64,000 bases of DNA from Bdellovibrionota bacterium (GTDB lineage: Bacteria; Bdellovibrionota_C; UBA2361; JBGSMV01): assembly GCA_044356455.1 (NCBI GenBank), contig JBIKWF010000008.1, positions 15,304 to 79,303 on the forward strand, read 5' to 3'. A model generated the notes under the pieces. That model did not search any database and was not told where the DNA came from. It worked only from the letters and a program-made list of their open reading frames with translations. The position numbers and the translations under genes were made by a program. This document shows, one piece after another, positions 14,692-63,672 of this stretch. The stretch's first letter is position 1; every line of letters begins with the position of its first letter.

Positions 14692-15058
14692 AAATGATGC
14701 AGTTTGAAATCGGAGAGGCTCCTGGTACAGCCTCCTGGGACACCCAAGTTCTACAGTCCTTCAGAATGGGTCAGGCTTAGGCTTGTCTGACTAACCATTC
14801 GCAATTACGAGCAAAAACAAATAACCGCGTGTGGTGTAGAGCAAGGGAGGGAGTCCTAAGGCGCTGCTGCCGCTAAAGTACCCTTAAGCGATCCCGGTCG
14901 CCGAAGTTGAGATTGCTTAGCCCTCTACTCCTCAATCAGGGGCTCTTGAGCTTGACCACGAAGAAAGAGTGGGGAAGGTTACTTGCGGTGAGTATCGGAG
15001 ATATTGCTTGAATAAGTGTCCCTTCATTACTTCTTTCTTAGAGCGTGTTCTCTTAGGC

Positions 15059-19787: not shown

Positions 19788-22445
19788 TTAGAAGCTTCTT
19801 GCCGCACAGCAGGCATAATTTCTCACAGCCCCGTACAGGTCAAAGTTAACTATTCCATCAGTTGGATTCACGGATGAGGGGCCAAAGCAGCGACTCGCAA
19901 CGCGCCGGTACACCGCATAGGCAACAAAACTTGAAGATGAGCCAACCGATCGAAGAGTGACACTTCCCGTATGAAGCCAGGTGTCATCGGGGAAATTGAG
20001 TCCAAGATTTGCCCGATTCGCGCACGCATACGCGAGGTCTTGGTGCTCACACACGCGGCCGCCAAGTGAATAGCACCGGTTCAAGGCCTCTTCGATTGTT
20101 CCAGATGCAGTGAAGCTTGGCTCTATACAGGTAGGTCCAAGGTCAATCCATCCAGCTGGGCACGAGAGTGTAGGTGTGTTTCCGGCAGGTCCTTGTGGAC
20201 CTATCGGGCCAATTGCTCCGGTATCACCCTTAGGCCCTTGCAGACCAATAGCGCCAGGCAATCCTTGGGGCCCTGCGGGTCCCGCTGGGCCAGCGACGCC
20301 GGTATCGCCCTTTAATCCTTGTGGGCCAGTTGCTCCCATGTCGCCTTTGAGACCTTGAGGTCCTGCGGGACCTGTAGCTCCTGTATCCCCCTTCAATCCC
20401 TGTAGTCCCGTGGGACCGGTTGCGCCAGTATCACCCTTGAGACCTTGTGCGCCTTGAGGTCCCATAGGTCCAGCAACACCCGTATCTCCTTTTTGTCCCG
20501 TTAGACCTTGCTCGCCGCGATCACCCTTAAGACCTTGCGGGCCTTGTGGTCCAATAGCACCCGCATCACCCTTGTCACCTTTGGGACCGACTGCTCCGTC
20601 AGCTCCCGCAGGTCCGGTTGCACCGGTATCTCCTTTCACTCCCGCCAGACCCTGTTCACCGCGATCCCCTTTAAGTCCTTGCGGGCCTTGTGGTCCAACC
20701 GCACCAACATCACCTTTATCGCCCTTGGGTCCGGCCGCTCCATCTGCTCCTACAGGTCCAGCTGCGCCGGTATCACCCTTTAGACCTTGTGCGCCTTGCG
20801 GTCCCGCAGGTCCGACATTTCCCGTATCTCCTTTTGGTCCCACCAAACCTTGCTCGCCGGTATCACCCTTAAGTCCTTGCGGGCCCTGTGGTCCAACCGC
20901 ACCGGCATCGCCTTTGTCGCCCTTGGGACCGACCGCTCCATCTGCTCCTGCAGGTCCAGTTGCGCCAGTATCACCCTTTAGACCTTGTGCGCCTTGAGGT
21001 CCTGCAGTTCCGACATCTCCCGTATCTCCTTTTGGTCCCACCAAACCTTGCTCGCCGGTATCACCCTTAAGTCCTTGCGGGCCCTGTGGTCCAACCGCAC
21101 CAACATCACCTCTATCGCCCTTTGGACCGACTGCTCCATCAGCTCCCGCTGGCCCAGTTGCTCCGGTTTCACCTTTGAGACCTTGTGCGCCTTGCGGCCC
21201 CGCCGGTCCGACATTTCCCGTATCTCCCTTTTGTCCCGCAAGACCTTGCTCTCCGCGATCTCCTTTCAGTCCTTGCGGGCCTTGTGGTCCAACCGCTCCC
21301 GCATCACCTTTTTCGCCCTTCGGACCGAGCGCTCCATCTGCTCCTGCAGGTCCAGTTGCTCCAGTATCACCCTTAAGACCTTGTGTGCCTTGCGGCCCGG
21401 CAGGTCCTACATCTCCCGTATCTCCTTTTGGTCCCACCAAACCTTGCTCGCCTCGATCACCCTTAAGTCCTTGCGGGCCCTGTGGTCCAACCGCACCAGC
21501 ATCGCCTTTGTCGCCCTTGGGACCGACCGCTCCATCTGCTCCTGCAGGCCCAGTTGCACCGGTATCACCTTTAAGACCTTGTGCACCTTGCGGACCCATA
21601 GGTCCAGCAACACCCATATCTCCTTTTGGTCCCGCAAGACCTTGCTCTCCGCGATCTCCTTTCAGTCCTTGCGGGCCTTGTGGTCCAACAGCACCCGCAT
21701 TACCCGTTGGTCCTTGCTCTCCTTGTTCGCCCTTTAACCCCTGAGGTCCAGCAACTCCGGCATCGCCCTTCTCTCCTTTTGGACCTTGAGCCCCATCAGC
21801 TCCCGCCTGGCCCTGCAAGCCGGGAAGTCCTTGTGGGCCTGCAATTCCCTGTGGACCTTGTTGCCCCTCTGCTCCCGTGGCGCCGGTCTCACCTTTCTCA
21901 CCGCGTTCTCCTTGCGATCCCGCCGGGCCAGCAGGCCCTTCAGGACCCATTGGTCCGGTGTCGCCTTTATCACCCTTGGGCCCTTGCACTTGAAGGGCGC
22001 CGAGAAGTTCAAGGAGTTCAGTAATGGTTACGACGGAAGATAAAAGAGGATAGCTTCGCCCAGAATGGCCACTTGTGTAGACCTGCAAATAAACTTTGCC
22101 TGAGGGACTTTTTGGAACCGAGACTGCGAGAGTAATAAGTCCGTCACGATCAATTTTTCCTGTGCCGACAATACTCGCGCCGCTCGCAGGCTTCGCTTGC
22201 GACCCTTGCAAGACAAAAACATCCGGCTTCAAGCTTATGCCAAGGGTATAGTTGGTGAAGGCCACACCTCGAATCGAGACATTTACTTTGGTGTCCCCAC
22301 CCGCACTCAGAATCGCAGGCTCCGAAACGGAAATATCTGGCGCCTCTTTGTTCCAGGAATCAGCCTGCGCTTCCCGTCGCCCTATCAGCAAGCCAAGGAA
22401 CAGCGCAGCAACAATCGGATTGAGGAGCAGCACTGGATACTTCAA
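19788..22445 (-). CDS. secreted collagen-like triple-helix repeat protein with a Cys-rich C-terminal globular domain
   Basis: Signal peptide, then about 600 aa of uninterrupted Gly-X-Y with 66-aa (198 bp) tandem units. The C-terminus [14 protein letters not shown]...[14 protein letters not shown] may be C-type lectin-like. Confidence 0.85.
20480..21720. repeat. tandem 198-bp coding repeats (about 6 units) inside the collagen-like gene
   Basis: gtatcacccttaagtccttgcgggccctgtggtccaaccgcacc recurs at about 20861, 21058 and 21454. The encoded units are 22 Gly-X-Y triplets. Confidence 0.8.
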
Positions 22446-24301: not shown

Positions 24302-25690
24302 CTACCAAAGTGCGGCGGGGTCTGCCGTAGTGGTGAGCGCAAGTCCCTGAGCTCCCGCGCCCCCCGCAGTAGTAGAATCATTTCCAATATTACCTGGATT
24401 CACGGTGCCTCCGTCGCCACCTGCGCCTCCGCTTCCGCCTCCGGAGCCTCCGCCTAGATACACAAATCCAGAGATACTTCCTGCCCCTCCCGCTGATCCT
24501 CCGGCTCCGCCATTTACCGTAATGCTGCCCGAGTTAGTGGCTGAGGGAGCAATTAAATGAACAATTCCTCCTCCGCCCCCGCCGCCTGCCGCAAAGCCGG
24601 TTGAGTTGGAGTCCGTCGCAAGTAATGCGCCACCGGCTCCTCCATTTGCAATAAGCGCACCGGAATTGCTGACCGAAGTACCCGAAGCGAGAAGTATAAA
24701 ACCTCCCCCACCTCCTCCTCGTGCGGGGCCCGGGGCGCCTGTTCCGTGTGCTGAGATACTCCCTTGATTCACCACGCCTCCGGCGCAAAGCACCGCGAAG
24801 TTACCTCCTCCATCACCTCCTGTGTCTGCACTTTCGCGAAAGCCATTTCCTCCTCCCAGAATGCCGAGCTTGAGTAGTTGCCGAGCAACTCCAGAGTAAA
24901 GAGCCAAGCCGCCTGTGCCCCCAAGGGCGGCCAGTCCTCCAGAACTCACGGTGCTTGGGCGAACGCCATTTTCGCCGAATCGAGGATGGTCGCGTAGGGC
25001 GGGATTAACGCTAATTGTTCCCTCATTCTGGAAACTACCAGTGCAGCGAATCACAGTACCTGAATGGACAGTCAGCGTGGACCCACTGGCAATCGTGAAA
25101 TTGGTATATTGAGGATTCGGGTCATTGAGAGTGACACTCCCCACAATAGATCTTCCGCCGGCCGATCCATCGCCGTAAATGCGCAGAGTCCCATCGCTTC
25201 CCGCGGTGCCGGGTGCTCCGGTTGAGCCAACTGGTCCTTGTGGCCCCGTTGCGCCTTGAGCTCCGGTAGGTCCGGCCGGACCTTGCGGACCAGTGAGCCC
25301 GGTTTCTCCCTGCGGGCCCGCCTCTCCTTGCTCCCCTGTTAACCCTTGTAGCCCCTGGTCCCCGCGTAATTCATCAAAAGCGATCTCTGTTTCGCCCAAA
25401 GCGACTGAGCAACGTTTGCGTACTTTGATAGACCCATTGCTCGTTCGAATGCAGAATTTATAACCGGGAAGACTGCTTGATTTACGCCTCAAGTCCTCAA
25501 CGTAGCATAGAGCTCCCTCACGCCAGTCTCGGCATTCTGATTTACCGAGCCCAAGGCTTGTACAATCATAAGGGCAGAGGTGTACGCTCACGGAGGAGGG
25601 AATTTGAGCGAGCGCCTCGGATATGTCCCAAATGGGGAGCAAGGAAAGCAATGCAAGAGTTCTCAGAATTCGAGAGTGAATGCGCAGCAT
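24302..25690 (-). CDS. secreted collagen-like / glycine-rich beta-helix-like protein
   Basis: Signal peptide and a Cys-containing N-domain. A short Gly-X-Y run GDQGLQGLTGEQGEAGPQGETGLTGPQGPAGPTGAQG... is followed by poly-Gly-rich repeats GGAGG/GGGGGG. Confidence 0.65.
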   Translation of the reverse strand: MLRIHSRILRTLALLSLLPIWDISEALAQIPSSVSVHLCPYDCTSLGLGKSECRDWREGALCYVEDLRRKSSSLPGYKFCIRTSNGSIKVRKRCSVALGETEIAFDELRGDQGLQGLTGEQGEAGPQGETGLTGPQGPAGPTGAQGATGPQGPVGSTGAPGTAGSDGTLRIYGDGSAGGRSIVGSVTLNDPNPQYTNFTIASGSTLTVHSGTVIRCTGSFQNEGTISVNPALRDHPRFGENGVRPSTVSSGGLAALGGTGGLALYSGVARQLLKLGILGGGNGFRESADTGGDGGGNFAVLCAGGVVNQGSISAHGTGAPGPARGGGGGGFILLASGTSVSNSGALIANGGAGGALLATDSNSTGFAAGGGGGGGIVHLIAPSATNSGSITVNGGAGGSAGGAGSISGFVYLGGGSGGGSGGAGGDGGTVNPGNIGNDSTTAGGAGAQGLALTTTADPAALW

Positions 25691-29924: not shown

Positions 29925-30830
29925 ATGGCATCAAAGGAAGAGGTATACGAAGCAGTCGTCGGGTTCTTGGTAAGACCGGTGGCGCGCTTTTGCGTGAGGA
30001 ACTCTATTCCTTTTCGCGTCTTTTTTGAGCATGCCCGCATGGCTTTTGTTCGTGAAGCCAACGCCTTCTTAGAAGGTCAGGGGCAATCGGCAAATGTGAG
30101 CCGAGTTGCGCTGCGCACGGGACTTAGCCGAAGAGAGGTTCAGGCGTGTCTTTCAAATCAAGAAGTTGAAGCTGAACCAAGTCTGCTCCGAAAGATTCTT
30201 GGTAAATGGCAGCTCGATAAGAGATACCGTGCTAAATCCGGCAGGCCTCGGCCGCTTACTGCGCTCGGCAATGATAGCGAGTTTGCTGAAATGGTGCGCT
30301 CGGTAAGTCAGGACCTTAATCCTTACTCAGTCCTTGGAGAACTCGAATCAGCAAAACTTGTGGAACGTAAGGATGCCGTAGTGACTCTTGTGTCGCCGGT
30401 GTACATCCCAGCGGGAGACATTAAGCGCGGCTTTCAGCTAGTGGCCTCTGATGTTGATGACCTCGTGCTCGCTGCGGAAGAGAATATTGAGCATCAAGAG
30501 AATCCGCCCCACCTGCATATTAAGACATCGTACGATAATATTGACGCCCGGGCTCTTCCTGAGATCCGTGAGTGGTGTATTAAGAAGGGACAGGAAATCC
30601 ATGCGGAGGCTCGTGAATTCTTTTCACGCTATGACCTCGACATGAATCCTCAGAGAGCGAAAGGGGGGGAGGCTACGGGGGGAGCGCGCGTAGCGCTTGG
30701 AACTTTCAGCATTGCTCAGCCGCCTGATATCAAAGCAAGCAGTGAGCCTGAAAAGACGGACCCGATTACTGGACTCGAACGTTCAGGCGAGGGAGCGAAG
30801 AAAAAAGCGCATAGGAGTGGGAGGGGGTAG
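29925..30830 (+). CDS. hypothetical protein with a helix-turn-helix-like segment
   Basis: The segment SANVSRVALRTGLSRREVQ looks like an HTH. Otherwise no recognisable family. Confidence 0.4.
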   Translation: MASKEEVYEAVVGFLVRPVARFCVRNSIPFRVFFEHARMAFVREANAFLEGQGQSANVSRVALRTGLSRREVQACLSNQEVEAEPSLLRKILGKWQLDKRYRAKSGRPRPLTALGNDSEFAEMVRSVSQDLNPYSVLGELESAKLVERKDAVVTLVSPVYIPAGDIKRGFQLVASDVDDLVLAAEENIEHQENPPHLHIKTSYDNIDARALPEIREWCIKKGQEIHAEAREFFSRYDLDMNPQRAKGGEATGGARVALGTFSIAQPPDIKASSEPEKTDPITGLERSGEGAKKKAHRSGRG

Positions 30831-31621
30831 TGGACAATTCAGGTAGGCATAGCAATTTTCTCATGAGAGTGAAGCTCTGCTCGCTCCTCTGTGTCCTATC
30901 TATCGCTACCCTCCTTGCGTCTTGTGCGGGAGGAGGGTCGGCAGGTACCGGAGGGGGCAGTGGAGTCGAGCGCACGTTCCGAGGATCGGTAAGAAGCGTC
31001 GGGGCACCAGTGGCGAACGTGCGTGTTTCGCTCGTTGAGACAGGAGCCACTTCGGTAACTGATGCAGAAGGGAAATTCTCTTTACAAGCCAATCTCCCTT
31101 CCGACTCCGCAACGCTAGGACTTATTGCTGCCGAGGGGCAGGCCGAACAATTTGTAGACGTGCCGATTGATAATCCGGATTCAACGGTAATCTCGGTTGA
31201 TATTTCCCTCGATGCTCAAAAGCTTGTTGAGTCCGTTTCTCGATTTTACATGTGGGCGCGCGTCGTTGGAGAATGTGCACGCTACTTTGATAATCAAGAA
31301 ATCATTCGTCAGAAGCGTAAAACGCCGCCAGAGTTGCCGTGCACCATGCGCTTTTTTGTTAATGGAGGGGTAACTCCGCTCGAGAATATCCCCGGCGCGA
31401 TGCAAGTAAGAAGTTGTGACTCAACATTGTGGAGACCACTCGCGACGGGGGCAACGGGCCGGGGGGCGGAAGCAGGGGTAGGCGAGATAGACTTCACCTT
31501 TATCGACAATGAGCGAAACTGCGAGTATCGTATTGTCGCTCCGTTTGATGTTCCGCCTCTTCCGGAGCTTTCGGTATTACTACAAACGCTCACCCTCACT
31601 TCTTCGCAGGCGAAGAAGTAG
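30830..31621 (+). CDS. lipoprotein with carboxypeptidase-regulatory-like (Ig-like) domain
   Basis: Lipobox LLASC and a Gly-rich linker. VRVSLVETGATSVTDAEGKFSL resembles a CarbopepD_reg fold. The start may be the internal MRVKL. Confidence 0.5.
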   Translation: MDNSGRHSNFLMRVKLCSLLCVLSIATLLASCAGGGSAGTGGGSGVERTFRGSVRSVGAPVANVRVSLVETGATSVTDAEGKFSLQANLPSDSATLGLIAAEGQAEQFVDVPIDNPDSTVISVDISLDAQKLVESVSRFYMWARVVGECARYFDNQEIIRQKRKTPPELPCTMRFFVNGGVTPLENIPGAMQVRSCDSTLWRPLATGATGRGAEAGVGEIDFTFIDNERNCEYRIVAPFDVPPLPELSVLLQTLTLTSSQAKK

Positions 31622-44627: not shown

Positions 44628-46439
44628 CTACTCAAGCAACTGAAGCGCCAAAGCCGGAGCCTGATTCGCTTGTGCGAGAATCGCCGTTGCAATCTCCTTG
44701 AGCGTTCTCGTTTGAACCAATGCCGCGCTTTCGTTTGCGATATCAATATTCGTGATTCTTGCAGACGCCGCATCATAGTTCTCTTTTGAGGAGCTTAGGG
44801 TGTTCAGAGCTACTGCAAGCCGGCTCTGGGTACTTCCTATAGCACCAAGCTCTTTAGATACTCTCGCAAGCGTCGCATCAATCACCGATAACGAACCTAG
44901 CGCTTCTGCGCGCGTCGTAAGATTGAGGCGCTGCATCGAGGTTACTTGCTCGCTGTTAGCAAGCCCGATTCTAAAGCCCGAGCTTGCGTTAGTAGAGACG
45001 AGGTAGTCGGCGGTGCCATCTCCGTTGAAATCACCAATCGAGAGATTACTTGCGAATGGAAGGACAACAGTTCCAAAAGTATTCGAAGCGCCAAATGTCC
45101 CATCCGCTGAGCCGTACCTGCCCTGCATCGTGCCATTTGCATTCACGAGAATGTCTGAGACTCCGTCTGCGTTGAGGTCAGCCACCTTGAGCGTATATAT
45201 AAAGCCACCGAAGGCTATCGAAGCTGCGTCCGCGAAGGTTCCGTCCCCCCGCCCCAAGTTTACCAAAGCGTTCGAACCTGAAGTGCCAATCGAATCAAGA
45301 ATTCCGTCGCGGTTAAAATCGGCGAGCTGCCGAGAGGAGGTCAATCCTGACGCTATCCCCGAACCAAAGGTGCCATTGCCCGAACCAAAGTAGCTTTTCA
45401 ATCCAGTAAGAATATCTATGCTCCCATTTCCGTCTAAATCTCCCAGCAGAGCAGCGCTGCCCCCAGTTCCTGAGATAGTTTGCGTCGGGGTGGATGAGAA
45501 AGACCCTGAGGCCGAGGCAAGGTGCACCGTATGAGCTCCGGAGGCTCCGACTAACAAGTCCGTTCGCCCATCATTGTTCAAATCCGCGGCCGCAAGACTG
45601 GAAATACCCGAAAATCCGCCGACCGCAGAGGTCCCAAAGCTCCCAGTTCCTAAATTGGTATAGATGACGACAGAAACCGAGGTCACGTCTTGAGCTGCGA
45701 TATCTATCCGACCATCCCCATTAAAGTCGCCAATAACGACTTGTGCAGAAGCAGCAGTGGAGCCTTGGGCCTGAGAAGTAAAAGTGCCGTTACTGTTACC
45801 GAAATAGGTAACAATATTCCCCAACTCAGATGTGACAACGTCCATAATGCCGTCGCCATTAAAATCAGCTTCAACCTGAGAATTTACAAAATTGGCGCCA
45901 CCTAAGTTGCTGCTCACAAAGGTTCCGTTCCCGGCAGTCCGGTCCAACTCAGTTCCAAGCCCGAATCCAATTGAGCCTGAAGTCCCCAGTCCTAGTTGTA
46001 GTCTCAACTCGCGCAGATCTCCGTCGAGAAGATTAATTCCGTTGTACGTCACACTGCTGAAGATCCGGTTGTACTCTTCAGTAAGCGCAGCCGCTTCTTT
46101 GTCCGATGATATCCTCTGAGTTCTGGAAAACGACCCGTTAGATGCTCCTATCGCAAGCTCTCTTAGCCGAAGAAGAATTCCCGATCCGCTCGTGAGCGCG
46201 CCCTCGGCAATAGAAAGTGCACTGATACCGTCGTTCGCATTTCTAATCGCCTGCGAGAAAATGCGGCTACTTACGTTAAGCTGGGAAGATACGGAGAGCC
46301 CCGCTGCATCGTCTGAAGCTCGGTTGATACGCATGCCGGAGGCCAGCCGCTCGAAGCTCAGCGACTCCGCCGACGTGGCTCGGTTCAACTGGCGCTGCGC
46401 CAGAAGAGAGGAAATGTTCGAACCAATTGAAATTGGCAT
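44628..46439 (-). CDS. fliC: flagellin with FG-GAP beta-propeller central domain
   Basis: Flagellin N-terminal region RINRASDDAAGLSVSSQL...NANDGISALSIAEGAL. Flagellin C-terminal region ends LAQANQAPALALQLL. About 7 FG-GAP repeats (DFNGDGIMDVV, DLNNDGRTDLL, DLDGNGSIDIL and others) replace the usual variable domain. Confidence 0.8.
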   Translation of the reverse strand: MPISIGSNISSLLAQRQLNRATSAESLSFERLASGMRINRASDDAAGLSVSSQLNVSSRIFSQAIRNANDGISALSIAEGALTSGSGILLRLRELAIGASNGSFSRTQRISSDKEAAALTEEYNRIFSSVTYNGINLLDGDLRELRLQLGLGTSGSIGFGLGTELDRTAGNGTFVSSNLGGANFVNSQVEADFNGDGIMDVVTSELGNIVTYFGNSNGTFTSQAQGSTAASAQVVIGDFNGDGRIDIAAQDVTSVSVVIYTNLGTGSFGTSAVGGFSGISSLAAADLNNDGRTDLLVGASGAHTVHLASASGSFSSTPTQTISGTGGSAALLGDLDGNGSIDILTGLKSYFGSGNGTFGSGIASGLTSSRQLADFNRDGILDSIGTSGSNALVNLGRGDGTFADAASIAFGGFIYTLKVADLNADGVSDILVNANGTMQGRYGSADGTFGASNTFGTVVLPFASNLSIGDFNGDGTADYLVSTNASSGFRIGLANSEQVTSMQRLNLTTRAEALGSLSVIDATLARVSKELGAIGSTQSRLAVALNTLSSSKENYDAASARITNIDIANESAALVQTRTLKEIATAILAQANQAPALALQLLE

Positions 46440-46486
46440 GACGGCAAAAAACAGAACTTAAATTAAAAGTTTCCTACCTTGGTAAG

Positions 46487-46510
46487 TTCGGCATCTCAGC
46501 AAAACTTTTA
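46487..46510 (-). promoter_or_regulatory. candidate sigma-28 (FliA) promoter for the flagellin gene
   Basis: Minus strand reads TAAAA-N14-GCCGAA, about 45 bp upstream of the flagellin start. Confidence 0.35.
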
Positions 46511-47140: not shown

Positions 47141-50100
47141 TTGTTTAGTTCTTCTCATAACTTCGTAGTCCGAGGGGCGTGCCTATCGCTACTTTCCCTC
47201 CTTCTCGCATCTGCGCCTGCAATTGCTAGCCCTGGGCTTCCCGTTGGCTTTGCGCCACTTTATGGATCTTACGCTTGCCGCTTCGGAATCCCGAATCGTG
47301 TCGTTGAGTTCAGGCAGCGCGTCGTGTCCGGAAATTCTCAATACGCGCGCACGATTCCAAGCATAAAGTCGCTTATCATCAAAAGAGATAACGCAGTTCG
47401 TAGACGCTCCGAGGAGAGAAGCCAAAGAGTTAGAGAAGAGCTTGGCCGAGCCATAACGAAGTATGGAGAGCTCATACGTCTTTCGAGATATTGCCGCGAT
47501 TTGAGGCGTCCCGCGGCCTCCCCAACCCCGGCTCAAAGTGCAAGCCCTACACCTCTTCCGACAAGCACTTCCGTGCCATCTCCTTCGTCTAGTCCTACGC
47601 CTACCCTTGGAGTAGCTACTCCTCCTGGTATAGAGATTCCACCTGAGATTACCGCTACAAGTGCTCCCACAAAAACAGCGACACCCACGAGCACCTCACT
47701 ACCTTCGAAAACACCAACTGCGGTAGCTACCGTAACTTCTACCAAAACAGCGACCCCCACAGGAACGGCGACTCCAACAAAAACCCCTTCAGCTACTGCT
47801 ACAAAAACACCTACGGCAACTCCGACCAAGTCTGCAACTCCCACAAAAACAGCCACGCCCACCAAAACGCCTACCGCAACTTCAACAAAAACACCCACCC
47901 CTACGACATCGCCAACCCCGCCTCCTGATCCAACTGCGACACCCTTTGCGCCGCGTCCTTTGATTCAAGCCTCGGCTGCAACTTTCTACAGTGTTACCTA
48001 CACCGTGACGTACTACGTGCTTTCATTGGGGCAAGATAGGCCCGGTGAGGCCGCTCAAGTTTCAGTCGAGCCGGTGAACGCGGCGAATCCACATCGCGCA
48101 AGTGTTCGTGTGTATGACCCGAGCGAGAAGTTGCAGGTGCTCCAGCAAATAGAGGGGCAAGGCGGAGTGCAATCGAAATTCTCTCCGTCCCCGCAGCTAG
48201 AGCTTTCCTCAGGACCATTTCCTCTTGCCAAGAATGGGACCTATGAGGTGCGCATCAGCGGAAATTCGAATATTCGCGCCAAGCTAAACCTTCCTCAAGA
48301 GGTAGGATGGGGCATCTCGTTCCAAAACGGCTGGTTTAGACCTTTTGAGGGCCAGCAGCCTGTTATGTATACCTGGATTACACAGCATCCCACCCAGCCA
48401 CTTAAGCTTACGTTTGTTTCCTCCTCGCAGGTCCTTAACGTGGCTTTGCCTGGGAAAGATCTCACTCCGATCTATGATGCGGAGGGAAAAATTCTTCGCT
48501 GGGAACTAATCGTTCCACCTTCAAGTTCGCAGACTGGCTATGTTCAACAGGTGCAGCTGAGCGGGGGAAGCAATCTTCATTTCCAAGTCTCAGGCATGCC
48601 GTTTATCCTCAGTCGTAGCGCCGAAGAAGCGGCACAAATCGGAGGCGGGCTGCAGCGCGTAGCGGGAGGGCCCATGAGTGGCTACCTTATTGCGCATCCT
48701 TACCAACAGGCCATCGCAGAACTTCTACCTGAACTCGTAACGCGCTCAGGTAATGGCACGGTCCTGAGTGCGCTTCCAGGCGCGAACTATCCTGCAACTG
48801 TTTCCTCTTGCAAGGCACCGCAAGCTGATGAGGATGTGATAAAAAATCTTGAGGTGCTCTCCCATTACGGAGGCGTGCTTCCAGGCGCCAAGTGGGCACT
48901 GGGTTCTACCGGAGGGGTTTCTAATCAAGATCTTTCCCTTGCGAGTCCATGGCTAGGCGTGCTTGCAACCTCGCTGTTCAATAAACAGGAGTGCAGCTCC
49001 AACTTTGATTGCGCGAATGGGAGTGCCTGTGTCAATGCGCGCTGTGCCCAGCAGTTCTCACCACTAACCGATAGATGGGATCGTTTTCAGCCGATGGAGT
49101 ATCGGAGTGAAGACAACAGAAAATATAGTCTCTATGCTGGTAGGAGCCCGCGGGGGCATCTGCATTACGCCCTTGTGTGGGCCGCGGTCACAAGTCACCC
49201 GTGTAATCCCTACGGGCCCCTAAGTCCTGGCGAACCATTGCAATACCCTGAGCTGCTGTACCGCGGTGTCGCGGGGGCATTGGCAGATCTGATGGTGGTG
49301 ACTGAGGATGAAAATTTGGTAGGAACAAACGGTTCCCTATCAGACCCCTATCCAGGGTACGCTGGTTTTGCCCTTGAGAATACGATCCCCGTTTTCCACT
49401 TGGCCTCTCCCCACCTTCTTTCGGGTATGCCCGATACTATAAAGGGAGAAACTCTTGGATTGGGAGTATACAAGGCATGGAGAACTGGTCTTGAGCGTAT
49501 GGTGCAGCGGCACTACTACGATTACCTCACCTCAACAGGGAACCAGACAGCGCACCACCTGGTATCCTTTATGTCCTTCGCGCTTGGAGTTCAGGAGCCC
49601 AGCGATCGAGCTTTCTATGATGCTACAGCTCGGCGCTGGGCGGGAAGACTTTTTGAGTCGATTCGCCCTGCCGGATACCTCATCGAAAATGATGCGGTGT
49701 GTACCAGCTATATTGGTATCTCAACTAACATGATGGGACGGTATCTTGGACTTACGCGAACAAGTGAGGCTGGAACTGATGTAAAAGCCGAGGAGGCGAT
49801 AGCAAAAATTTTTGGGTTCTTCAATCACACGGTCTCAGTTGAGCCAGATGGCGGGAGCGTTCCAGGCTTTAACTTTAGCCACCGCATAGGAAGAGGTTTT
49901 GATACTCTGCAATACAATGGAGCCAAGGTAATGGCAGACGCGATTCCAGAAGTAGGCGTGTGGTCTCGATCCACACCAGCTAAGATTCCAGCTTTGCGGA
50001 CTTCCTTGCAAAGCTTGGCAGTTAGTTTTGATGCGAATGCAAGTAATATTCCCCTTGTCAGCTTTCCGTGGACACCAGATCGCGCAACACATTACTCTTC

Positions 50101-51007
50101 GGCCTTCTTGGGTGGGTACGTATACCCAGCCGAGGAAGAAGAATCCTTTGTGCGAAACTTTGGTGATGAGTACATCGCCGTGAAACGACCTTCGTACTTT
50201 GCTGGAATCTTTGTTGGAAAGCCTAAGGGGGGCTGGGGAGTTCTAGAGTTAAAAATTCGCGAGAATTATCGGAATCCCACCACTGAAAAGAAGCTGAATG
50301 AGGGAGGCGTCTCGGTTGAAGACCTCGCACCTGAGACGGGGGCAAGTATTAGCGCTTACAATTATAATCCTTACCTAGGGGGCGGCCTATCCTTGTTTAC
50401 TACCCCGGCATATGGGTCAGCAGTAGCGGGTACCACGTGGTCAGCGCTGGCTCAGCACGGGCTCGTTGCATGGCAAGGAGGTAAGCGTTATTGGAACGAT
50501 TATTATTCTACCCAATTTTTGCTCGACCAGGAGCAGGATGCTTTGACGGTGTCAGGCAGCATCGAAACGCTTCCGTTCGTTTACTCTCGCAACTACTCAT
50601 TCTTAGAAGATCGTCTCAGTATGACACTTACTATTCAGGCGACGCAGTCGATAAGCCTTGAGAAGTTTGCGGAGATTATTCCCGTGCCTACCTGCACGCG
50701 CGCAAATTGCAATGGAGCCATCAAGAATCGCAAGCTGCGAGGAGCCTTCCTTGATGTTACGGGTGGGGCGTCTCCGTCAAATGGTCAGGTCGTGACGGCC
50801 CAAAAAGTGCAAGTACTCGATCAGAATAGTAAGGGCGTAACTTTTGAATTTACTTCTGCCGTGCCGCTTAGTCTACAGAGGCATGGACTTCGTCACCTTT
50901 ATTACGACGATGAGTTCCAGGTCGGTCGCATCGAGGTTCAATTACCTACTACCTGGAGCGCTGGTCAGGTGTACACCCTTTCGTACTCACTTATTCCCAC
51001 TCCTTAG
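47141..51007 (+). CDS. large secreted protein with Pro/Thr-rich mucin-like linker
   Basis: Signal peptide. A 140-aa linker ([31 protein letters not shown]) encoded by 47540-47930. About 1000 aa C-terminal region with no recognisable family. Confidence 0.6.
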
Positions 51008-56547: not shown

Positions 56548-58035
56548 TCACGCGGAGCCACCATTTGACGTGTCTCCATCCTTAAGCACAAAACGCGCTG
56601 AAAGCATGGCGACGGTGCGAGCGAGTTTAGCTTTCTCAACAGAAGCGAGCACCTCCGCGAAAGGTTTATACGCCTGAGGCGCTTCATCCAGAGGATATCT
56701 CCGGCAGTTACTGAGAATGTCTGCCCTGTCTAGCTGCGCATCAACCTCTCCCTGGATAAGTTCACGCTGCGCTCTTGAGCGGCTCATGGCACGCCCAGCC
56801 CCATGGTTGACGCTGTAACAACTGAGCGCCGCACCAGGCTCTGCAACCATGACCGCGGAGCCAGCGGCGGGATTTCCAGGAAGCAAAATGGGGTGGCCAC
56901 TCGCTTCGTAGCGTGTTCCCTCAAGTCCGGGATGTCCTGCGGGGAATGCTCTCGTTGCTCCTTTGCGATGAACCCACGTGGGCTCTCCTTCAACGATCTC
57001 CTTGCGCGCAATATTATGGCTAATGAAATAAACCAAGTCGCCCGAAAGCCCAGGGAAAATTTCCTGAAATGCCTCAAGAACAAGAGCATTAATGAGCAAG
57101 TGATTGAGCGTCGCAAAGTTTGCGCCGAGCGCAAGGTCATCTAAATAGCAATCGGCCTCACTCGTTCCAAGAGGAGCATACACGAGCTCACGATCGCCGC
57201 CCGGGAAAGGAATTCCGCTTGCCGCGAATTTACCCTGGAGTGTCTTAAATTGCTGTTGTGCGAGGAGGTACCCAAAGCCGCGCGAGCCGCAATGCGAAAG
57301 AAAAGCGATTTTACCGTCGCTGAGACCAAAGCTCTTGGCGATAGCTTCTTCGCCGCGAGTAACCCTCACGGTATTGGCTTCACCAAAGTGATTTCCACCA
57401 CCGTAGGAACCTAGCTGCTGAATCTTTGATTCAAGCACGTCACTTCCCCAGGAACCTTCGACCAGCTCAAGACGCTTGCCAAGAGACTGAGAAGTTCCGT
57501 CATTTCCGAAATGTCGCGAGTCCTCACACGCATCCGTCCATGCGAAGGGAATACCCAACGCAGAGCATACTTCGGCTGAGGCGCCTTCGATGGCAAGTCT
57601 GCGTCCCGTGGCCAAATCCACATGCCGTGCTTTCCTCACAGAACGCTGCCCTTTGCCGGAGCCGGTAGGAAGGCGCTGCATGAGAGCGTTTATCACTGCG
57701 CGCCTCGCTTCTTTGCTGAGAAGTTCCTCTTCGGGAAGATTCGTCTGAAGAAGGCTCATCGAGCATTTGATGTCTACGCCCACGGGAGCTGGATAGATAT
57801 GTGTCGGCGAGGTGAGGACGCTGCCGACAGGCGCTCCGTATCCCGCGTGTGCATCAGGATTGAGGACTACCTTGGTGACCCCGGGAGCAAGTCGGCTATT
57901 TATGGCTTGCTGCAGGCACTTTTCGTCGAAGGAGGTGCGAATACTCTCGGTGCCAATGACCGTAATGGGAGTCACCGAAGAGTCAGGAACGGGGAGAATT
58001 CCCACCGCTTCTTCAACTGGAATTACCTTATTCAT
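56548..58035 (-). CDS. rtcB: RNA 3'-phosphate ligase RtcB
   Basis: Motifs PDAHAGYG, HNI/HCGSRG and C-terminal NHGAGR. 495 aa. Confidence 0.9.
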   Translation of the reverse strand: MNKVIPVEEAVGILPVPDSSVTPITVIGTESIRTSFDEKCLQQAINSRLAPGVTKVVLNPDAHAGYGAPVGSVLTSPTHIYPAPVGVDIKCSMSLLQTNLPEEELLSKEARRAVINALMQRLPTGSGKGQRSVRKARHVDLATGRRLAIEGASAEVCSALGIPFAWTDACEDSRHFGNDGTSQSLGKRLELVEGSWGSDVLESKIQQLGSYGGGNHFGEANTVRVTRGEEAIAKSFGLSDGKIAFLSHCGSRGFGYLLAQQQFKTLQGKFAASGIPFPGGDRELVYAPLGTSEADCYLDDLALGANFATLNHLLINALVLEAFQEIFPGLSGDLVYFISHNIARKEIVEGEPTWVHRKGATRAFPAGHPGLEGTRYEASGHPILLPGNPAAGSAVMVAEPGAALSCYSVNHGAGRAMSRSRAQRELIQGEVDAQLDRADILSNCRRYPLDEAPQAYKPFAEVLASVEKAKLARTVAMLSARFVLKDGDTSNGGSA

Positions 58036-58363: not shown

Positions 58364-59485
58364 TTACTTCGTGAGAGAAACGAGGCCTTTCATGACTCCG
58401 TCAAGTCCATCGTAGACCGTAAGCTTCCCTACCTTCTCACTAATACGCTCGACCGCCTCAAGCTCCTTTAACCTAAGGAGCACGGGATTATTCTCCATCA
58501 TCCTCGCGGTATTCATAAGCGAACGCGTGGCGGCGGTCTCTTCGCGCCGGCGAATATTCTGAGCCTGGGCAGCCTTTTCAGCTTCAACTACCTGGTTCAG
58601 GAGTGCGCGCATTTCACCGGGAAGGATGAGATCCTTAACCCCGATACGCACGATCTCGATTCCGCACACCTCCATCGCAGCCTTAATCTCGGAAGCAAGA
58701 ACTCTATTAAGAAGCTCCTTGTTCTCAAGCAACTCATCCAGAGTCTTCTCTCCCACGGCCTGCCGAAGTGCGAGCTGGGCGCAGCGATAAATCTCGCCCA
58801 GTATATCGCTTAGCGCGCGTGTTGCCTTGACCGCGTCTACCAAACGATAACTCACGCTCAAGTTCACCCGAAGAGATACCTTGTCCTTTGTGAGCATCTC
58901 CTGTCCGCTTACCTCAAGTGCAGTCAAGCGAGTATCTAGAATGCTCACAGACAAATCGCGCTGGGCGCGCCAGAATGCGTAGTGCCCAGGTGCGAGTTCA
59001 CGGACAATCACTCCCGATTCGAGCAGCAATCCCCTACATTGCTCAGGAACGCTCACACGCAGAATCTTGGGATCCGCCGCCAAACCAGACAAATTGCGCA
59101 CCGTCTCGCGGTCCAGCTCATACCCCTCCGAGATCTCGAACCTTTTGACGTTGATCTCAGCAAGCCCTTTCCAAAAGAGACGCTCTTCGCTCGGCATCAC
59201 AAGACAAGAAGCTTGCGAATTGAGGTACACCACGGCCACTTCACGAGGCCCTGTTTCAACCTTAACCAAGAACTCTGCAAGCTCAGAGGTGAAGCGATTC
59301 GCAAGCAGCTGGGCAATGGGCCCACGAAGCTCTACCTCCTTAGCGATATCGGAAATCGCAACGGCGACCTTACAAAGGGGGTTTAAGAATCGGTAGCTTC
59401 CAGGGGCAAGGATGCGTTCAAAGCGCTTATCTTTATAAAGAATCCCACGTTCGGTGCTTCCAATAACAATCTTTTTCATATTCAC
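58364..59485 (-). CDS. SPFH/band-7 (slipin-like) protein with about 170-aa N-terminal extension, co-transcribed with rtcB
   Basis: SPFH core LTKDKVSLRVNLSVSYRLVD...GIEIVRIGVKDLILPGEM...EAEKAAQAQ. RBS AGGAG 8 nt upstream of the ATG. Confidence 0.8.
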   Translation of the reverse strand: MNMKKIVIGSTERGILYKDKRFERILAPGSYRFLNPLCKVAVAISDIAKEVELRGPIAQLLANRFTSELAEFLVKVETGPREVAVVYLNSQASCLVMPSEERLFWKGLAEINVKRFEISEGYELDRETVRNLSGLAADPKILRVSVPEQCRGLLLESGVIVRELAPGHYAFWRAQRDLSVSILDTRLTALEVSGQEMLTKDKVSLRVNLSVSYRLVDAVKATRALSDILGEIYRCAQLALRQAVGEKTLDELLENKELLNRVLASEIKAAMEVCGIEIVRIGVKDLILPGEMRALLNQVVEAEKAAQAQNIRRREETAATRSLMNTARMMENNPVLLRLKELEAVERISEKVGKLTVYDGLDGVMKGLVSLTK

Positions 59486-59700: not shown

Positions 59701-59772
59701 AGGACATAGGCAGGAGTCGAACCTGCTACACATCGATTAACACTCGATTGCTCTACCCATGAGCTACTATGG
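59701..59772 (-). ncRNA. tRNA-Asn(GUU)-like cloverleaf element, possibly a pseudo-tRNA or Y-RNA/tRNA-like regulatory RNA
   Basis: Hand fold of the minus strand. D-arm GCTC-ATGGGTA-GAGC. Anticodon stem ATCGA/TCGAT with loop GTGTTAA (anticodon GTT). T-arm GCAGG-TTCGACT-CCTGC. The acceptor stem pairs at only 5 of 7 positions (1:72 and 2:71 mismatched), and there is no encoded CCA. Confidence 0.5.
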
Positions 59773-59887
59773 TGACCGGTCCTCTTCGACGCGGTACGCG
59801 GCTGAGACTAGATTAGTTATCCAACTCTGCTGCGCCGCCCGGCCTTGCTGAAGCCAGTCGTCCAGTGAACAGTCGAAGCTATATAGA

Positions 59888-59988: not shown

Positions 59989-61596
59989 ATGAATCGAGTT
60001 GCCTTTGGCTTTTTAGGAACCAAGCTTGATGCCTTTGGGGGCTTTGGCGAGAAGCGCTTAAAAACCTGGCGTCCTTCGGTGGCGCTGGGCCTCGACCAGG
60101 CTCTTGGGCTTAGCCGGTTTGAGCTCTGGTACAATGAGCGCTTCGCGCGGGTTGCCAAGCTCGTTAAAGACGACATCGAAGAACAGCGAGTAGGAATTCA
60201 GGTGATTCTGCGCGAGGCATCTATTCGCGACCCATGGAATTTTGAGGAGGTGTACAGCTTTCTTTTTGATTTTAGTACGAGCTACCCCTTCAAAACCGAG
60301 AGCGAAGAATACTTCATACATCTCACCACCGGTACGCATGTCGCGCAAATCTGTCTCTTTCTTTTAACTGAGTCGCGGCATTTTCCTGGAAAGCTTGTTC
60401 AAACGAATCCACGAGGCAAGCAGACCGAAGAAGAATTGAGCATCATCGACCTTGACCTCTCCAACTATGACAAACTTGCAAGACGCTTTGAGCAGAAACG
60501 AGGAGCCGACCTAGAACTCCTTAAAGCGGGAATCAAAACTCTCAGTGCCTCATTCAATTCATTAATTTCTGAAATTGAAGTAGTAGCGCGTGCAAGTAGC
60601 GATCCGCTATTGCTTCTCGGACCCACGGGAGCGGGAAAGTCAAAGCTCGCCCAGCAGATCTATCTTCTCAAGCAATCCCAGCACCGCGTTCAGGGAGAAT
60701 TTGTAGATGTGAATTGCGCGACCATACGGGGAGAACAAGCCATGTCTGCCCTTTTTGGACATGCCAAGGGGGCTTTTACGGGAGCCATTGGTAAACGCGA
60801 TGGGTTATTAAAAAAGGCGCATAAAGGCCTGCTCTTTCTGGACGAGATCGGCGAACTCGGTCTTGACGAGCAAGCGATGCTTCTTCGAGCAATAGAAGAG
60901 AAACGGTTTTTCCCCCTCGGGAGCGACCAGGAGGAGCGTAGCGATTTCCAGCTCATTTCGGGAACTAATCGCGACCTTAACGAGAGAGTCAGCGCCGGGC
61001 TATTTCGAGAGGACCTTTTGCGGCGTATTGATATTTGGAGCTTTGAACTTCCGGCACTTAGAGACCGTAAGGAGGATATAGAGCCGAATCTTGAATTCGA
61101 GCTAAAAAAATTCGAGGAACGTTCAGGTCGTCGAATTACCTTTAGCAGTGAGGCAAAGAAAGCATTTCTTAGCTTTGCCACAGGTCCTCTCGCTCTTTGG
61201 CCTGGAAACTTTCGCGACTTAAACGCCTCGGTGACTCGAATGGCTACACTTGCTCCTCAAGGGCGAATTAGTATGGAAGTCGTGGAAGTTGAGACTCAAA
61301 GACTTACTCGGGCATGGCGCTATCCGCAGAAAGCCGAATCCGCTCTTGGAGAAGTGGAATCAATTATTCGCTTGGCAGGACTTTCTCCTGAGCTTGTCGA
61401 TCCCTTTGACAGGCCACAGCTTGCTGCGGTGCTGCAGGCGCTTGCCCGTGCTCGTTCAATTGCAGAGGCCGGACGTGAGCTTTTTGCAGTTTCGCGGAGG
61501 GAACGTTCAGTGGTTAATGACTCTGACAGGCTCAGGAAATACCTAAACCGATTTGGAATAGATGCGAGGCGGATTGTGGGGACCAATACTCGTTAA
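59989..61596 (+). CDS. rtcR: sigma-54-dependent transcriptional activator RtcR (CARF-AAA+-HTH)
   Basis: 535 aa. Walker A GPTGAGKS and sigma-54-contact motif GHAKGAFTGA. An N-terminal non-receiver, CARF-like domain. Divergent from the rtcB operon. Confidence 0.85.
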   Translation: MNRVAFGFLGTKLDAFGGFGEKRLKTWRPSVALGLDQALGLSRFELWYNERFARVAKLVKDDIEEQRVGIQVILREASIRDPWNFEEVYSFLFDFSTSYPFKTESEEYFIHLTTGTHVAQICLFLLTESRHFPGKLVQTNPRGKQTEEELSIIDLDLSNYDKLARRFEQKRGADLELLKAGIKTLSASFNSLISEIEVVARASSDPLLLLGPTGAGKSKLAQQIYLLKQSQHRVQGEFVDVNCATIRGEQAMSALFGHAKGAFTGAIGKRDGLLKKAHKGLLFLDEIGELGLDEQAMLLRAIEEKRFFPLGSDQEERSDFQLISGTNRDLNERVSAGLFREDLLRRIDIWSFELPALRDRKEDIEPNLEFELKKFEERSGRRITFSSEAKKAFLSFATGPLALWPGNFRDLNASVTRMATLAPQGRISMEVVEVETQRLTRAWRYPQKAESALGEVESIIRLAGLSPELVDPFDRPQLAAVLQALARARSIAEAGRELFAVSRRERSVVNDSDRLRKYLNRFGIDARRIVGTNTR

Positions 61597-61638: not shown

Positions 61639-61804
61639 CCTAGGTTTCTGCGTCGCAGAAACCTAGGGCGGCTCTAAAAAACTTTAATATTCTATTTTCT
61701 CTCTCTGTGAACTCTGTGCCCTCTGTGGTTGATTTAAATTATTGAAAAACCACAGAGGACACAGAGAAAAAATAATATATCGAGGTTTTTCAGAAGTTCC
61801 TTAG
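61639..61804. repeat. MITE-like dispersed repeat, copy G
   Basis: Starts with the perfect palindrome cctaggtttctgcgtcgcagaaacctagg, then ctagggcggctctaaaaaac ... tttttcagaagttccttag. The right terminus contains the ABC-F stop codon. Confidence 0.65.
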
Positions 61805-63672
61805 GAGAATTCAGACTCAGATGAAGTCAGCTTCGAGGACAAGTCCTCTAGCGTCTCAAACAGCTCATCTATGCGCTTTTTCGCTGCGGCAGTCTCTCGT
61901 GATAGCTCGGCCATTTTAAAGACATCTGTCTTGGCTCCTTGAGAGGCGGAGGCTGCTTCTGCCATCAGTGTTTCGTTTCGCTTAATGGACTCCTCAAGGG
62001 TAACAATTTGCTTCTCAACCGAAGCAATTTCCTTCTCGAGTGGGCCAATAACTTTCGAGCGATCCTGGCGCTGCTTGGCGCGATCTTTTCTATCAAGATT
62101 TGAGCTCTTGGCGGGGGCAGGCGCCGGGGCAGCAGGCTTGCTGCTTGAAGAAGAAGACGGGGTGTCGTCCCCATCTCCCCACCCACCACGAGAGAGGAAA
62201 TAGTCGTAATTACCTTCCAGGATATTTACGCCTTCATCCGAGAAGACAATCAGGCGCGTAGCTAACTTGCGCAGCATAAACTCGTCATGCGTGACAAGCA
62301 TGACTGCGCCTTCGTACTGGGCGAGGCTGTCTACGAGAGCCGCGATGGACTCTAGGTCGAGATGGTTTGTCGGTTCGTCGAGCAGCAAAAGGTTCGAGGG
62401 CTGTGCAATCAGCTTGCCCAATAGAACCCTGCTTTTTTCTCCTCCCGAAAGGACAGATATTTTTTTCTCGCCATCATCTCCCGTGAACATCATCGTGCCG
62501 CAAATTGAGCGTACCCTCGTGCGGTGCATATTGTGGTTTGTGGAGGCTATCTCTTCCTCAACCGTTAAGTTCTTTGACAGGCGCTGAATATTCGTCTGCC
62601 CGAAATAGCCAATCTTTGTATGAGGAGAGCTACGAATTTCACCCGAGGTGAGTTTCAGTTCACTTGCGAGCAGTCTAAGAAGTGTAGATTTACCCTTTCC
62701 GTTCTTTCCAATAACACCGATTCGATCGCCAGGGCGCACGACAACCGTGAAGTCTTTGATGATTTCCGTTGGCGTGGATTTCGAAGGCGTGGGGGGGAAG
62801 GAGAATGAGCCATTCTCAAGTTCAATTAAACTTTTTCCAAAGAAGGGGATTCCTGTAAAATTGAAATCAAGCACAGGAACTTCAATGAGCTCTTCTGGCA
62901 CTTCCATCTTCTCGAGCATCTTCATGCGCGATTGAGCAAGGCTCGCGGTTCCTGCCTTGGCCTTAAACTTGTTGACGAACTGCTCAACCTCTTTGCGCTT
63001 CTTTTCTTGATTGAGACGTGTTTGCTCGTGAATGGTCTCCTCTTCAGCGAGTAAATCGTAGAGTTTCTGTGTTCGTCCCTGCACCCGGCGCGCCTTGCCG
63101 CGGTGAATAATCATGGTGTGAGTAGAAACCGCATCGAGAAAGGCGCGGTCATGGGAGATCATGATAAGTTCGCCTTCCCAGTCGCAGAGGAATCGCTCAA
63201 GCCAACGCGCAGAAACGATATCAAGGTAGTTGGTCGGCTCATCGAGCAACAAGAGGTTTGGCTCGGAGAGCAGAACGCGGGCGAGCTCAAGCCGGATCTG
63301 GAATCCTCCCGAAAAGCTCGAGGCGGGCCGCTCAAAATCCTCAATCGAAAAGCCCAAGCCGCTCAGAATAATTTCGGCTTTATACTCCTCATCCATGCGG
63401 TCCGGAGGAAGGCCAAGGCAAGCTTCACGGAGAATCGTTGGCTGGTTGAATTCTAGATGCTGGGACAAATGTCCTACGCGGTAGCCTTTAGGAAGTATTA
63501 CTTCCCCTTCGTCGGGATGGTCTTCTTCAAGGATGAGTTTAAACAGGGTTGATTTGCCAGTTCCATTACGGCCTACGAGCGCAAGACGCTCCCCGGGGGT
63601 GAGGGAGAACGAAACGCCCTTGAAGAGGGTCCTATCTCCATACGATTTTTCAACGTTTATAACTTGCAGCAC
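61801..63672 (-). CDS. ABC-F family ATPase (Uup/EttA-like translation factor)
   Basis: Two ABC ATPase domains (GRNGTGKST, GKNGKGKST, LSGG signatures). An inter-domain linker and a C-terminal coiled coil. Confidence 0.9.
   Translation of the reverse strand: MLQVINVEKSYGDRTLFKGVSFSLTPGERLALVGRNGTGKSTLFKLILEEDHPDEGEVILPKGYRVGHLSQHLEFNQPTILREACLGLPPDRMDEEYKAEIILSGLGFSIEDFERPASSFSGGFQIRLELARVLLSEPNLLLLDEPTNYLDIVSARWLERFLCDWEGELIMISHDRAFLDAVSTHTMIIHRGKARRVQGRTQKLYDLLAEEETIHEQTRLNQEKKRKEVEQFVNKFKAKAGTASLAQSRMKMLEKMEVPEELIEVPVLDFNFTGIPFFGKSLIELENGSFSFPPTPSKSTPTEIIKDFTVVVRPGDRIGVIGKNGKGKSTLLRLLASELKLTSGEIRSSPHTKIGYFGQTNIQRLSKNLTVEEEIASTNHNMHRTRVRSICGTMMFTGDDGEKKISVLSGGEKSRVLLGKLIAQPSNLLLLDEPTNHLDLESIAALVDSLAQYEGAVMLVTHDEFMLRKLATRLIVFSDEGVNILEGNYDYFLSRGGWGDGDDTPSSSSSSKPAAPAPAPAKSSNLDRKDRAKQRQDRSKVIGPLEKEIASVEKQIVTLEESIKRNETLMAEAASASQGAKTDVFKMAELSRETAAAKKRIDELFETLEDLSSKLTSSESEFS

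Follow-up and report, generated by a model that had tools for sequence, protein, structure and literature searches.

What would a bacterial flagellin do with an integrin-type beta-propeller in place of its usual outer domain? The question is raised by a gene at 44628-46439 on the complementary strand of a 64-kb window (the whole 64,000-nucleotide stretch analysed here, from contig JBIKWF010000008.1 of a Bdellovibrionota bacterium), which is complete and predicts a 603 aa flagellin interrupted by a predicted seven-bladed FG-GAP propeller. Flagellins with functional outer domains are already known, flagellinolysin being one [PMC5595980], and it is the FG-GAP propeller variant that appears to be new. 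The architecture is solid and of specialist interest, while everything past it we infer. The explanation favoured here, at a probability of roughly 60%, is that the product is an accessory or alternative filament flagellin that displays an array of Ca2+-stabilised propellers, probably for multivalent binding.

The open reading frame (ORF) starts at the first ATG past an in-frame stop, and its own stop codon occupies 44628-44630. Pfam matches to the predicted protein were accepted above the curated gathering cut-offs, and they place a flagellin family at each end, as expected from the original prediction that D0/D1 termini flank an insert. Flagellin_N [PF00669] covers residues 6-140 (104.9 bits, cut-off 26.6) and matches positions 2-136 of its 139-position profile, and Flagellin_C [PF00700] covers residues 518-602 (51.7 bits, cut-off 23) and matches positions 2-86 of 86. 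Vibrio filament flagellins are the best sequence matches among solved structures (E 2e-46), with an alignment that spans residues 1-154 and 481-602 of the window protein and reaches the last residues of both proteins. The middle region has no sequence match in the flagellins of the PDB. In the AlphaFold2 model of the full protein, which was built from a family alignment of 40 sequences (mean predicted local distance difference test score, pLDDT, 85.9; predicted template modelling score, pTM, 0.77), helices are located at residues 7-33, 45-100, 106-129 and 510-602, and the stretch 145-499 is beta-strand throughout. The N-terminal D0/D1 core (residues 1-160; 45960-46439, complementary strand) is modelled as the first three of these helices followed by the D1 beta-hairpin, and the C-terminal D1/D0 core (residues 510-603; 44631-44912, complementary strand) as the single long helix, with the end ...AQANQAPALALQLLE. 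The D0/D1 termini are complete in this model, and the insertion point of the outer domain lies past the D1 beta-hairpin. Foldseek searches with the full model returned flagellar filaments at the top (E 3e-15 to 1e-10), matching the core.

NCBIfam flagellin subfamily models score 130-200 bits and match both termini. The best, polar flagellin E [NF006468], reaches 200.8 bits against a cut-off of 436 over the termini only, and the protein is not a member of any curated NCBIfam subfamily. The foreign middle region keeps these scores under the full-length cut-offs. The Flagellin_N fold is also common to FlgL, the hook-filament junction protein (HAP3), and the FlgL model TIGR02550 does give 57.5 bits. 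Database annotations of family members read 'flagellin' or 'VCBS repeat-containing protein', and some from the Joint Genome Institute (JGI) read 'flagellin-like hook-associated protein FlgL', a name that we take to be the generic COG1344 label. The FlgL score lies under its cut-off of 127.2 and far under the ~200 bits of the flagellin models, and FlgL was rejected on these scores; the best solved relatives are all filament flagellins. It is therefore very improbable that the gene encodes FlgL or another minor axial protein.

The insert occupies residues 165-500 (~336 aa; 44940-45947, complementary strand). At least seven Ca2+-binding repeats had been predicted for it, and the motif D-x-[DN]-x-[DN]-G-x-x-D occurs exactly seven times, starting at residues 192, 238, 286, 334, 374, 421 and 470, at a spacing of 40-49 residues. 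From blade 1 to blade 7, and all on the complementary strand, the Ca loops are DFNGDGIMD (residues 192-200; 45840-45866), DFNGDGRID (238-246; 45702-45728), DLNNDGRTD (286-294; 45558-45584), DLDGNGSID (334-342; 45414-45440), DFNRDGILD (374-382; 45294-45320), DLNADGVSD (421-429; 45153-45179) and DFNGDGTAD (470-478; 45006-45032). All were assigned from the motif, that of blade 2 also from the family alignment and that of blade 3 also from an alignment with integrin. Within the family, D200 of blade 1 is invariant, and D192, N194, D196 and G197 are conserved in at least 90% of members. Each of the seven blades therefore carries the hairpin motif, and the loops would be expected to bind Ca2+. FG-GAP_3 [PF13517] matches in six stretches (139 bits, E 7e-41, cut-off 26.9) and FG-GAP [PF01839] in five (78.8 bits, cut-off 22.1). 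When residues 160-505 were modelled alone, confidence was higher (pLDDT 89.8, pTM 0.88) than for the full protein, and the seven repeats are predicted to close into one propeller. The outer domain was thus recovered as a seven-bladed propeller by both AlphaFold2 and Foldseek, and not as the D2/D3 beta-folium of an ordinary flagellin, the outcome under which the original prediction would have failed. The middle of the model matches the seven-bladed fungal lectins PVL, PAL and AAL2 as well as the TcB propeller, and at the sequence level the insert matches the Ca blades of integrin alpha-IIb and the PAL, AAL2 and PVL lectins. Blade 3 SSLAAADLNNDGRTDLLVGA aligns residue for residue with a segment of integrin alpha-IIb, both carrying the Ca motif. 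Judging from the strand list, the long first and last strands (residues 167-178 and 489-499) probably form a two-stranded stalk that connects the propeller to D1.

Two other identities for the insert were rejected. A Dockerin_1 match over residues 237-294 (25.4 bits, cut-off 22.9) would indicate a type I dockerin, a duplicated EF-hand-like module of ~60 aa with two helices, but it sits on the FG-GAP Ca loops and arises because the Ca-loop motif is common to both families; the model is all beta-strand there. An enzymatic insert like that of the flagellinolysins finds no counterpart in the protein, which has no HEXXH motif and no peptidase or flagellin-HEXXH Pfam match. Its two histidines, at residues 303 and 306 (AHTVHL), do not form HEXXH.

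Comparison with known systems places the protein between two groups. The same seven-bladed fold and the 1-2 loop Ca hairpins are found in integrin alpha, in the PVL, PAL and AAL2 lectins, in TcB and in giant FG-GAP/VCBS proteins. Integrin propellers carry Ca loops in three or four blades, whereas the insert has one in all seven. Relative to these adhesin and receptor propellers, the insert is also stripped of Cys, Trp, Pro and Lys and is embedded in a flagellin, and its established likeness to the PVL/AAL2-type lectins, which have pockets for GlcNAc or sialic acid between the blades, is one of fold and weak sequence similarity. When the insert alone was compared with 1.84 billion representative sequences, 95,278 proteins matched, the closest being giant multi-propeller FG-GAP proteins (1.4-7 kaa) with 33-39% identity. 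The insert is thus best described as a generic bacterial FG-GAP_3 module for which no nearer donor is identifiable.

On the flagellin side, the conventional proteins (Salmonella FliC with its D2/D3 domains; Pseudomonas and Campylobacter flagellins with Ig-like domains) are alike in having a conserved D0/D1 core with a variable outer domain at the tip of D1 [PMC11532411]. The window protein differs in that the outer domain is a single closed 336 aa propeller with seven Ca loops rather than a beta-folium or Ig-like domain, and in that the propeller fold has been retained across a deep clade rather than swapped. In the flagellinolysins, too, the hypervariable region has been replaced by a foreign domain that is globular and functional, and their demonstrated assembly into filaments provides a precedent for 'functionalised' flagella [PMC5595980, PMC7643111]. 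Their insert is a zinc metallopeptidase with HEXXH, whereas the propeller has no HEXXH, peptidase match or predicted catalytic site. A 793 aa flagellin from Geovibrio [PDB 9au6] and flagellins of >1000 aa also form filaments [PMC11532411, PMC6248924], and size is therefore no obstacle for a protein of 603 aa. These giant and Geovibrio flagellins show that a filament can accommodate large outer domains and becomes thick with them, but their outer domains are multi-domain and of Ig-like, FliD-like or unknown folds.

A flagellin with a propeller had been predicted to be unusual, but it is not as singular as this suggests. Propeller-type flagellins were touched on in 2024, when the AlphaFold survey of flagellins by Fields et al. 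devoted one sentence to a 'WD40-repeats' outer-domain cluster, #55; the survey includes no experiment on a flagellin of this kind, and its text makes no mention of FG-GAP, integrin, VCBS, lectin or Bdellovibrio [PMC11532411]. A full-text literature search found no description of an FG-GAP or VCBS flagellin. Cluster #55 may correspond to the FG-GAP family or to a PD40 type, and for the latter a candidate is present in an uncultured Bdellovibrionales metagenome-assembled genome (MAG) [CAZTBW010000011.1]. This locus, L008, encodes at positions 380-2413 a 677 aa flagellin with a PD40 'WD40-like beta-propeller repeat' insert (E 1e-13), and on sequence grounds it represents a second class of propeller flagellin in the same phylum.

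The FG-GAP flagellins form a large family. Among the matches listed from a search of 5.8 billion proteins, at least 120 protein clusters have the arrangement Flagellin_N, FG-GAP and Flagellin_C. Nearly all of the listed clusters are 599-686 aa long (E 6e-126 to 4e-94), with 36-45% identity to the window protein by BLASTP and 37-47% for 39 aligned members. As at least 120 independent clusters share the full-length architecture, an assembly chimera or a pseudogene can be ruled out. The listed members all come from metagenomes or MAGs, and the few that are named belong to MAGs called Oligoflexia, Bdellovibrionales, Bdellovibrionota, 'Deltaproteobacteria' or 'Proteobacteria'. A scan of the GTDB species set with universal N-terminal flagellin motifs, which returned mostly generic flagellins, added at least three clear family loci, from Bdellovibrionales and Bdellovibrionota MAGs and one unclassified MAG. 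For the ABC-F protein encoded in the window (61801-63672), the 5.8-billion-protein collection contains a JGI metagenome sequence of 100% identity, but the flagellin finds at most 45% identity there, and the flagellin's own sequence therefore seems to be missing from that collection. The nearest named relatives of the ABC-F protein (53-55% identity) belong to the same groups as the named family members, which makes an uncultured host of the Bdellovibrionota/Oligoflexia type most likely.

In a rough neighbour-joining tree of the N-terminal 140 residues, drawn without support values, all FG-GAP flagellins fall in one clade, the sister of which is the PD40 flagellin L008. This single clade suggests that the propeller was acquired once. 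Conventional short flagellins fall outside the clade, including one (L061) from the same MAG as an FG-GAP flagellin (L001). That MAG, Co_bin.265, therefore carries both an FG-GAP flagellin and a conventional flagellin of 287 aa, and the match to the latter runs on into a probable second copy. Because a conventional flagellin coexists with the FG-GAP type in Co_bin.265, and FG-GAP flagellin paralogs occur in pairs in L083 and L086, the FG-GAP protein most likely has an accessory role.

Under the favoured explanation, the flagellin would be exported unfolded via the flagellar type III system and polymerised through its intact D0/D1, with a seven-bladed integrin-alpha-type propeller, one Ca loop per blade, taking the place of the usual D2/D3 outer domain. 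Used beside conventional short flagellins, the subunit would coat all or part of the filament, on which Ca2+-stabilised propellers would form a dense array. Multivalent binding to surfaces, glycans or other cells would then take place at the variable face, made up of the 2-3 and 4-1 loops. The adhesion or Ca-dependent binding to prey that was originally proposed may be a use of this kind.

The composition of the insert is consistent with such a route. It contains no Cys and no Trp, only 0.6% Pro and 0.6% Lys, and has a predicted isoelectric point of 4.05; across the family, the whole protein lacks Cys in 34 of 40 aligned members. By contrast, a 504 aa FG-GAP_3/PQQ-type propeller protein encoded elsewhere in the window (14969-16483, forward strand) has 1.4% Cys, 1.2% Trp, 4.8% Pro and 4.2% Lys. 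The composition would be typical of flagellar type III substrates, which pass unfolded through a narrow channel, and the insert looks adapted to the flagellin setting. The net charge of the insert is -19 in the apo form and -5 with seven Ca2+ bound. Given an apo insert of this acidity and seven conserved Ca loops, the domain may fold only after export; it is a speculative extension that it may stay unfolded in the low-Ca cytoplasm, with folding triggered by Ca2+ outside.

A stronger form of this idea is a Ca2+-gated 'lectin flagellum', in which the unfolded acidic propeller would pass the ~2-nm flagellar channel and extracellular Ca2+ would then drive its folding at the filament tip. Folding would act as a ratchet, as it does for RTX proteins during type I secretion, thousands of propellers would be presented per filament, and with their paralog-specific variable faces Bdellovibrio-like bacteria would capture prey or particles. 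We regard this elaboration as unlikely.

The pattern of conservation bears on what the propeller is for. Mean identity of the family to the window protein is 56% in the N-terminal core and 50% in the C-terminal core, and 31% in the insert. Among 40 aligned members, three glycines of the insert are invariant and so are the Ca-loop aspartates, some of the latter nearly so, and at least 90% conservation is reached by additional glycines and by the Phe in the LGNGDGTF turn. Blade-by-blade orthology between the window protein and its homologs, which might have singled out a conserved blade for binding, was not detected, as diagonal and off-diagonal identities are about the same. A given blade is no closer to the corresponding blade of a homolog than to the others, and it follows that only the repeat scaffold is constrained. 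Mapping to the predicted strands places the conservation in loops 1-2 (Ca) and 3-4 (GNGDGTF) and most of the indels and length variation in loops 2-3 and 4-1. The upper, ligand-binding face of an integrin propeller is made up of its 2-3 and 4-1 loops, with the 1-2 Ca loops on the lower side. Variation in the family is therefore concentrated on what is canonically the binding face.

Recent paralogs show the same tendency. The L083 pair (L083:9787-10705 and L083:17920-18838) lies 8 kb apart and shares a 96%-identical promoter and first ~235 codons, with amino acid residues 1-140 being 98.6% identical. The inserts are 49% identical and the C-terminal cores 71%. This pattern suggests that either the 5′-ends were homogenised by gene conversion or the inserts recombined. 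A binding role is favoured because the variable loops match the integrin ligand face and diverge quickly between paralogs.

The main rival is a filament subunit in which the propeller is purely structural or hydrodynamic and has no specific ligand. It would thicken and stiffen the filament, perhaps locking neighbouring outer domains, and aid swimming in viscous or porous habitats. The limitation of conservation to scaffold positions, with no conserved binding pocket, is what such a protein would show, and outer domains are known to tune motility in viscous media via domain-domain contacts [PMC8931119, PMC10256154]. Thick filaments are formed by giant flagellins [PMC6248924], and for the window protein a rough volume estimate, in which each 4.7-Å axial rise adds a domain of ~37 kDa beyond a core radius of ~60 Å, gives a filament diameter of at least ~19 nm (~19-25 nm when this lower bound is given as a range). 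However, a 336 aa propeller with seven Ca sites would be costly as mere bulk, a packing lattice would be expected to constrain the contact surfaces, and the fast loop divergence of recent paralogs is a better fit to changing specificities or to escape from phages or grazers. A purely structural role is accordingly considered unlikely, though it is the best placed of the alternatives to binding.

Escape could also be the main function, with the propeller surface acting as a diversifying decoy that shields the conserved core from flagellotropic phages, grazers or predators and with paralogs supplying the variation. Paralogs that hardly differ over the 5′ region and the N-terminal core, yet have inserts of 49% identity, fit this reading, as does the concentration of variation in surface loops. 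The fold and all seven Ca sites have nevertheless been kept over long distances, while antigenic outer domains elsewhere are usually swapped wholesale, and the annotation of the family loci, where repeats were not searched for, shows neither invertible elements nor recombinase genes that could mediate switching. A decoy as the principal role is improbable.

The setting of the gene bears on whether the protein enters a filament at all. The original prediction that no flagellar genes are adjacent extends to the entire window, in which none of the 41 non-nested ORFs of at least 150 aa that were scanned has a flagellar domain. Other family genes are also solitary and lie in unrelated contexts. No neighbour is conserved across the loci, the contexts of which differ, with a few exceptions: a UDG gene lies near the flagellin gene in L083 and in the window, where it is three ORFs away, and a DUF6502 gene is found 2-14 kb from FG-GAP flagellins in the window (29925-31621, forward strand), in L087 (L087:20456-21830) and in L088 (L088:14111-14932), followed directly by a CarboxypepD_reg-like gene in the window and in L087. 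The DUF6502 synteny is weak and probably reflects related hosts and not a functional link. Family contigs do carry a che operon (L085), a flgM gene (L084) and a FliG_C-domain gene (L088), and these genes, together with the enrichment of sigma-28-like motifs described below, are the reason for regarding the hosts as probably motile.

A sigma-28-like promoter had been noted upstream of the window gene. The candidate, TAAAAGTT-N10-GCCGAACT (in full TAAAAGTTTTGCTGAGATGCCGAACT), is present at 46485-46510 on the complementary strand and begins 71 nt upstream of the ATG, but its match to the sigma-28 consensus TAAAGTTT-N10-12-GCCGATAA is 11 of 16 positions, a score reached by 15.6% of random 200-nt windows, so that taken alone it is no better than chance. 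The pattern TAAA-N13-16-GCCGA occurs twice in the window, where 2.1 occurrences are expected. In the upstream regions of the family, of which ~10 are independent, three score at least 12 of 16 (background 2.4%) and about six score at least 11 of 16, an example being TAAATTTG-N11-ACCGATAA in L083. This family-wide enrichment makes sigma-28 control plausible for the family, and the window gene is a candidate for it. No riboswitch or other Rfam RNA was found in the 700-nt upstream intergenic region, even at E<=1.

These features bear on a second rival, in which the protein is a secreted or cell-surface Ca-dependent lectin or adhesin outside the filament, using flagellar export or only the flagellin fold. 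Campylobacter FlaC is a comparable flagellin-derived protein found outside the filament. Another is the 'cell-surface flagellin' of Sphingomonas A1 [PDB 3k8v], and this solved structure is among both the sequence and the fold matches of the window protein. At the loci examined the gene is never inside a flagellar cluster, conventional flagellins coexist with it, and divergence is greater in the C-terminal than in the N-terminal core, all of which would suit a protein released from filament duty. On the other hand, flagellin genes often sit away from flagellar clusters, the upstream sigma-28-like motifs fit late flagellar gene expression, and both D0 termini are full length and 50-56% conserved over a deep family, which is what polymerisation and interactions with FliS and FliD would demand. 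A location outside the filament is therefore also unlikely.

Several points weigh against the favoured explanation of a binding accessory flagellin. That family proteins are part of a filament is itself something we infer. The gene stands apart from flagellar genes across the whole 64 kb, its own sigma-28 motif is statistically weak, and no Shine-Dalgarno sequence is evident before the ATG. The 51.7 bits scored by Flagellin_C compare with 94 in the conventional flagellin of a related MAG, and the family alignment contains no conserved pocket or non-scaffold residue that would mark a binding site. Finally, if the flagellum is sheathed, the propellers would be kept from external ligands, and the flagellum of Bdellovibrio is membrane-sheathed.

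On one side of the flagellin gene lie an unknown gene of 234 aa, a holin-like membrane protein gene, RsgA and UDG. On the other, across the 700-nt intergenic region, is a divergent 1288 aa ORF (47141-51007, forward strand) with a signal-peptide-like N-terminus, a long low-complexity linker rich in Pro, Thr and Ser, and a region of ~1000 aa without a Pfam match. Its product is probably a large secreted or surface protein. At L081, and at no other locus examined, the FG-GAP flagellin gene is followed immediately downstream by a convergent gene for a 1028 aa multi-FG-GAP_3 protein (L081:11928-15014, complementary strand).

Elsewhere in the window, two genes on the complementary strand predict collagen triple-helix repeat proteins, of 885 aa (19788-22445; Pfam Collagen, E 3e-95) and 462 aa (24302-25690). 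The larger one lies in a stretch that stands out from the remainder of the window (~52% GC) by a GC content of 60% and a strongly negative skew in both GC and AT. An RNA-repair module consists of an RtcB RNA ligase gene (56548-58035, complementary strand), a Band_7/SPFH gene (58364-59485, complementary strand) and a gene for the sigma-54 activator RtcR (59989-61596, forward strand), and a tRNA gene (59702-59773, complementary strand) is located in the regulatory intergenic region of the RtcB/RtcR module. The first 15 kb include genes of defence or toxin type, namely a DUF4143/AAA_14 ATPase (2571-3821), an AbiEii-like nucleotidyltransferase toxin (8082-8687) and a HipA kinase toxin (13080-14303).

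The view is gaining ground that the outer domains of flagellins are modules with functions such as proteolysis, adhesion or the tuning of motility, and among displayed domains a closed, Ca-dependent propeller of seven blades would represent a new fold class. At published flagellin copy numbers [PMC7643111], each filament would display many thousands of these propellers. The arrangement also raises the question of how a velcro-closed propeller folds after passage through the narrow flagellar channel, and it offers a possible natural scaffold for the display of binding domains on flagella. The family is large and deep, and its range is confined to Bdellovibrionota-type bacteria, a poorly studied group with many predators. 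The FG-GAP flagellins may thus bear on how they attach to prey or to surfaces.

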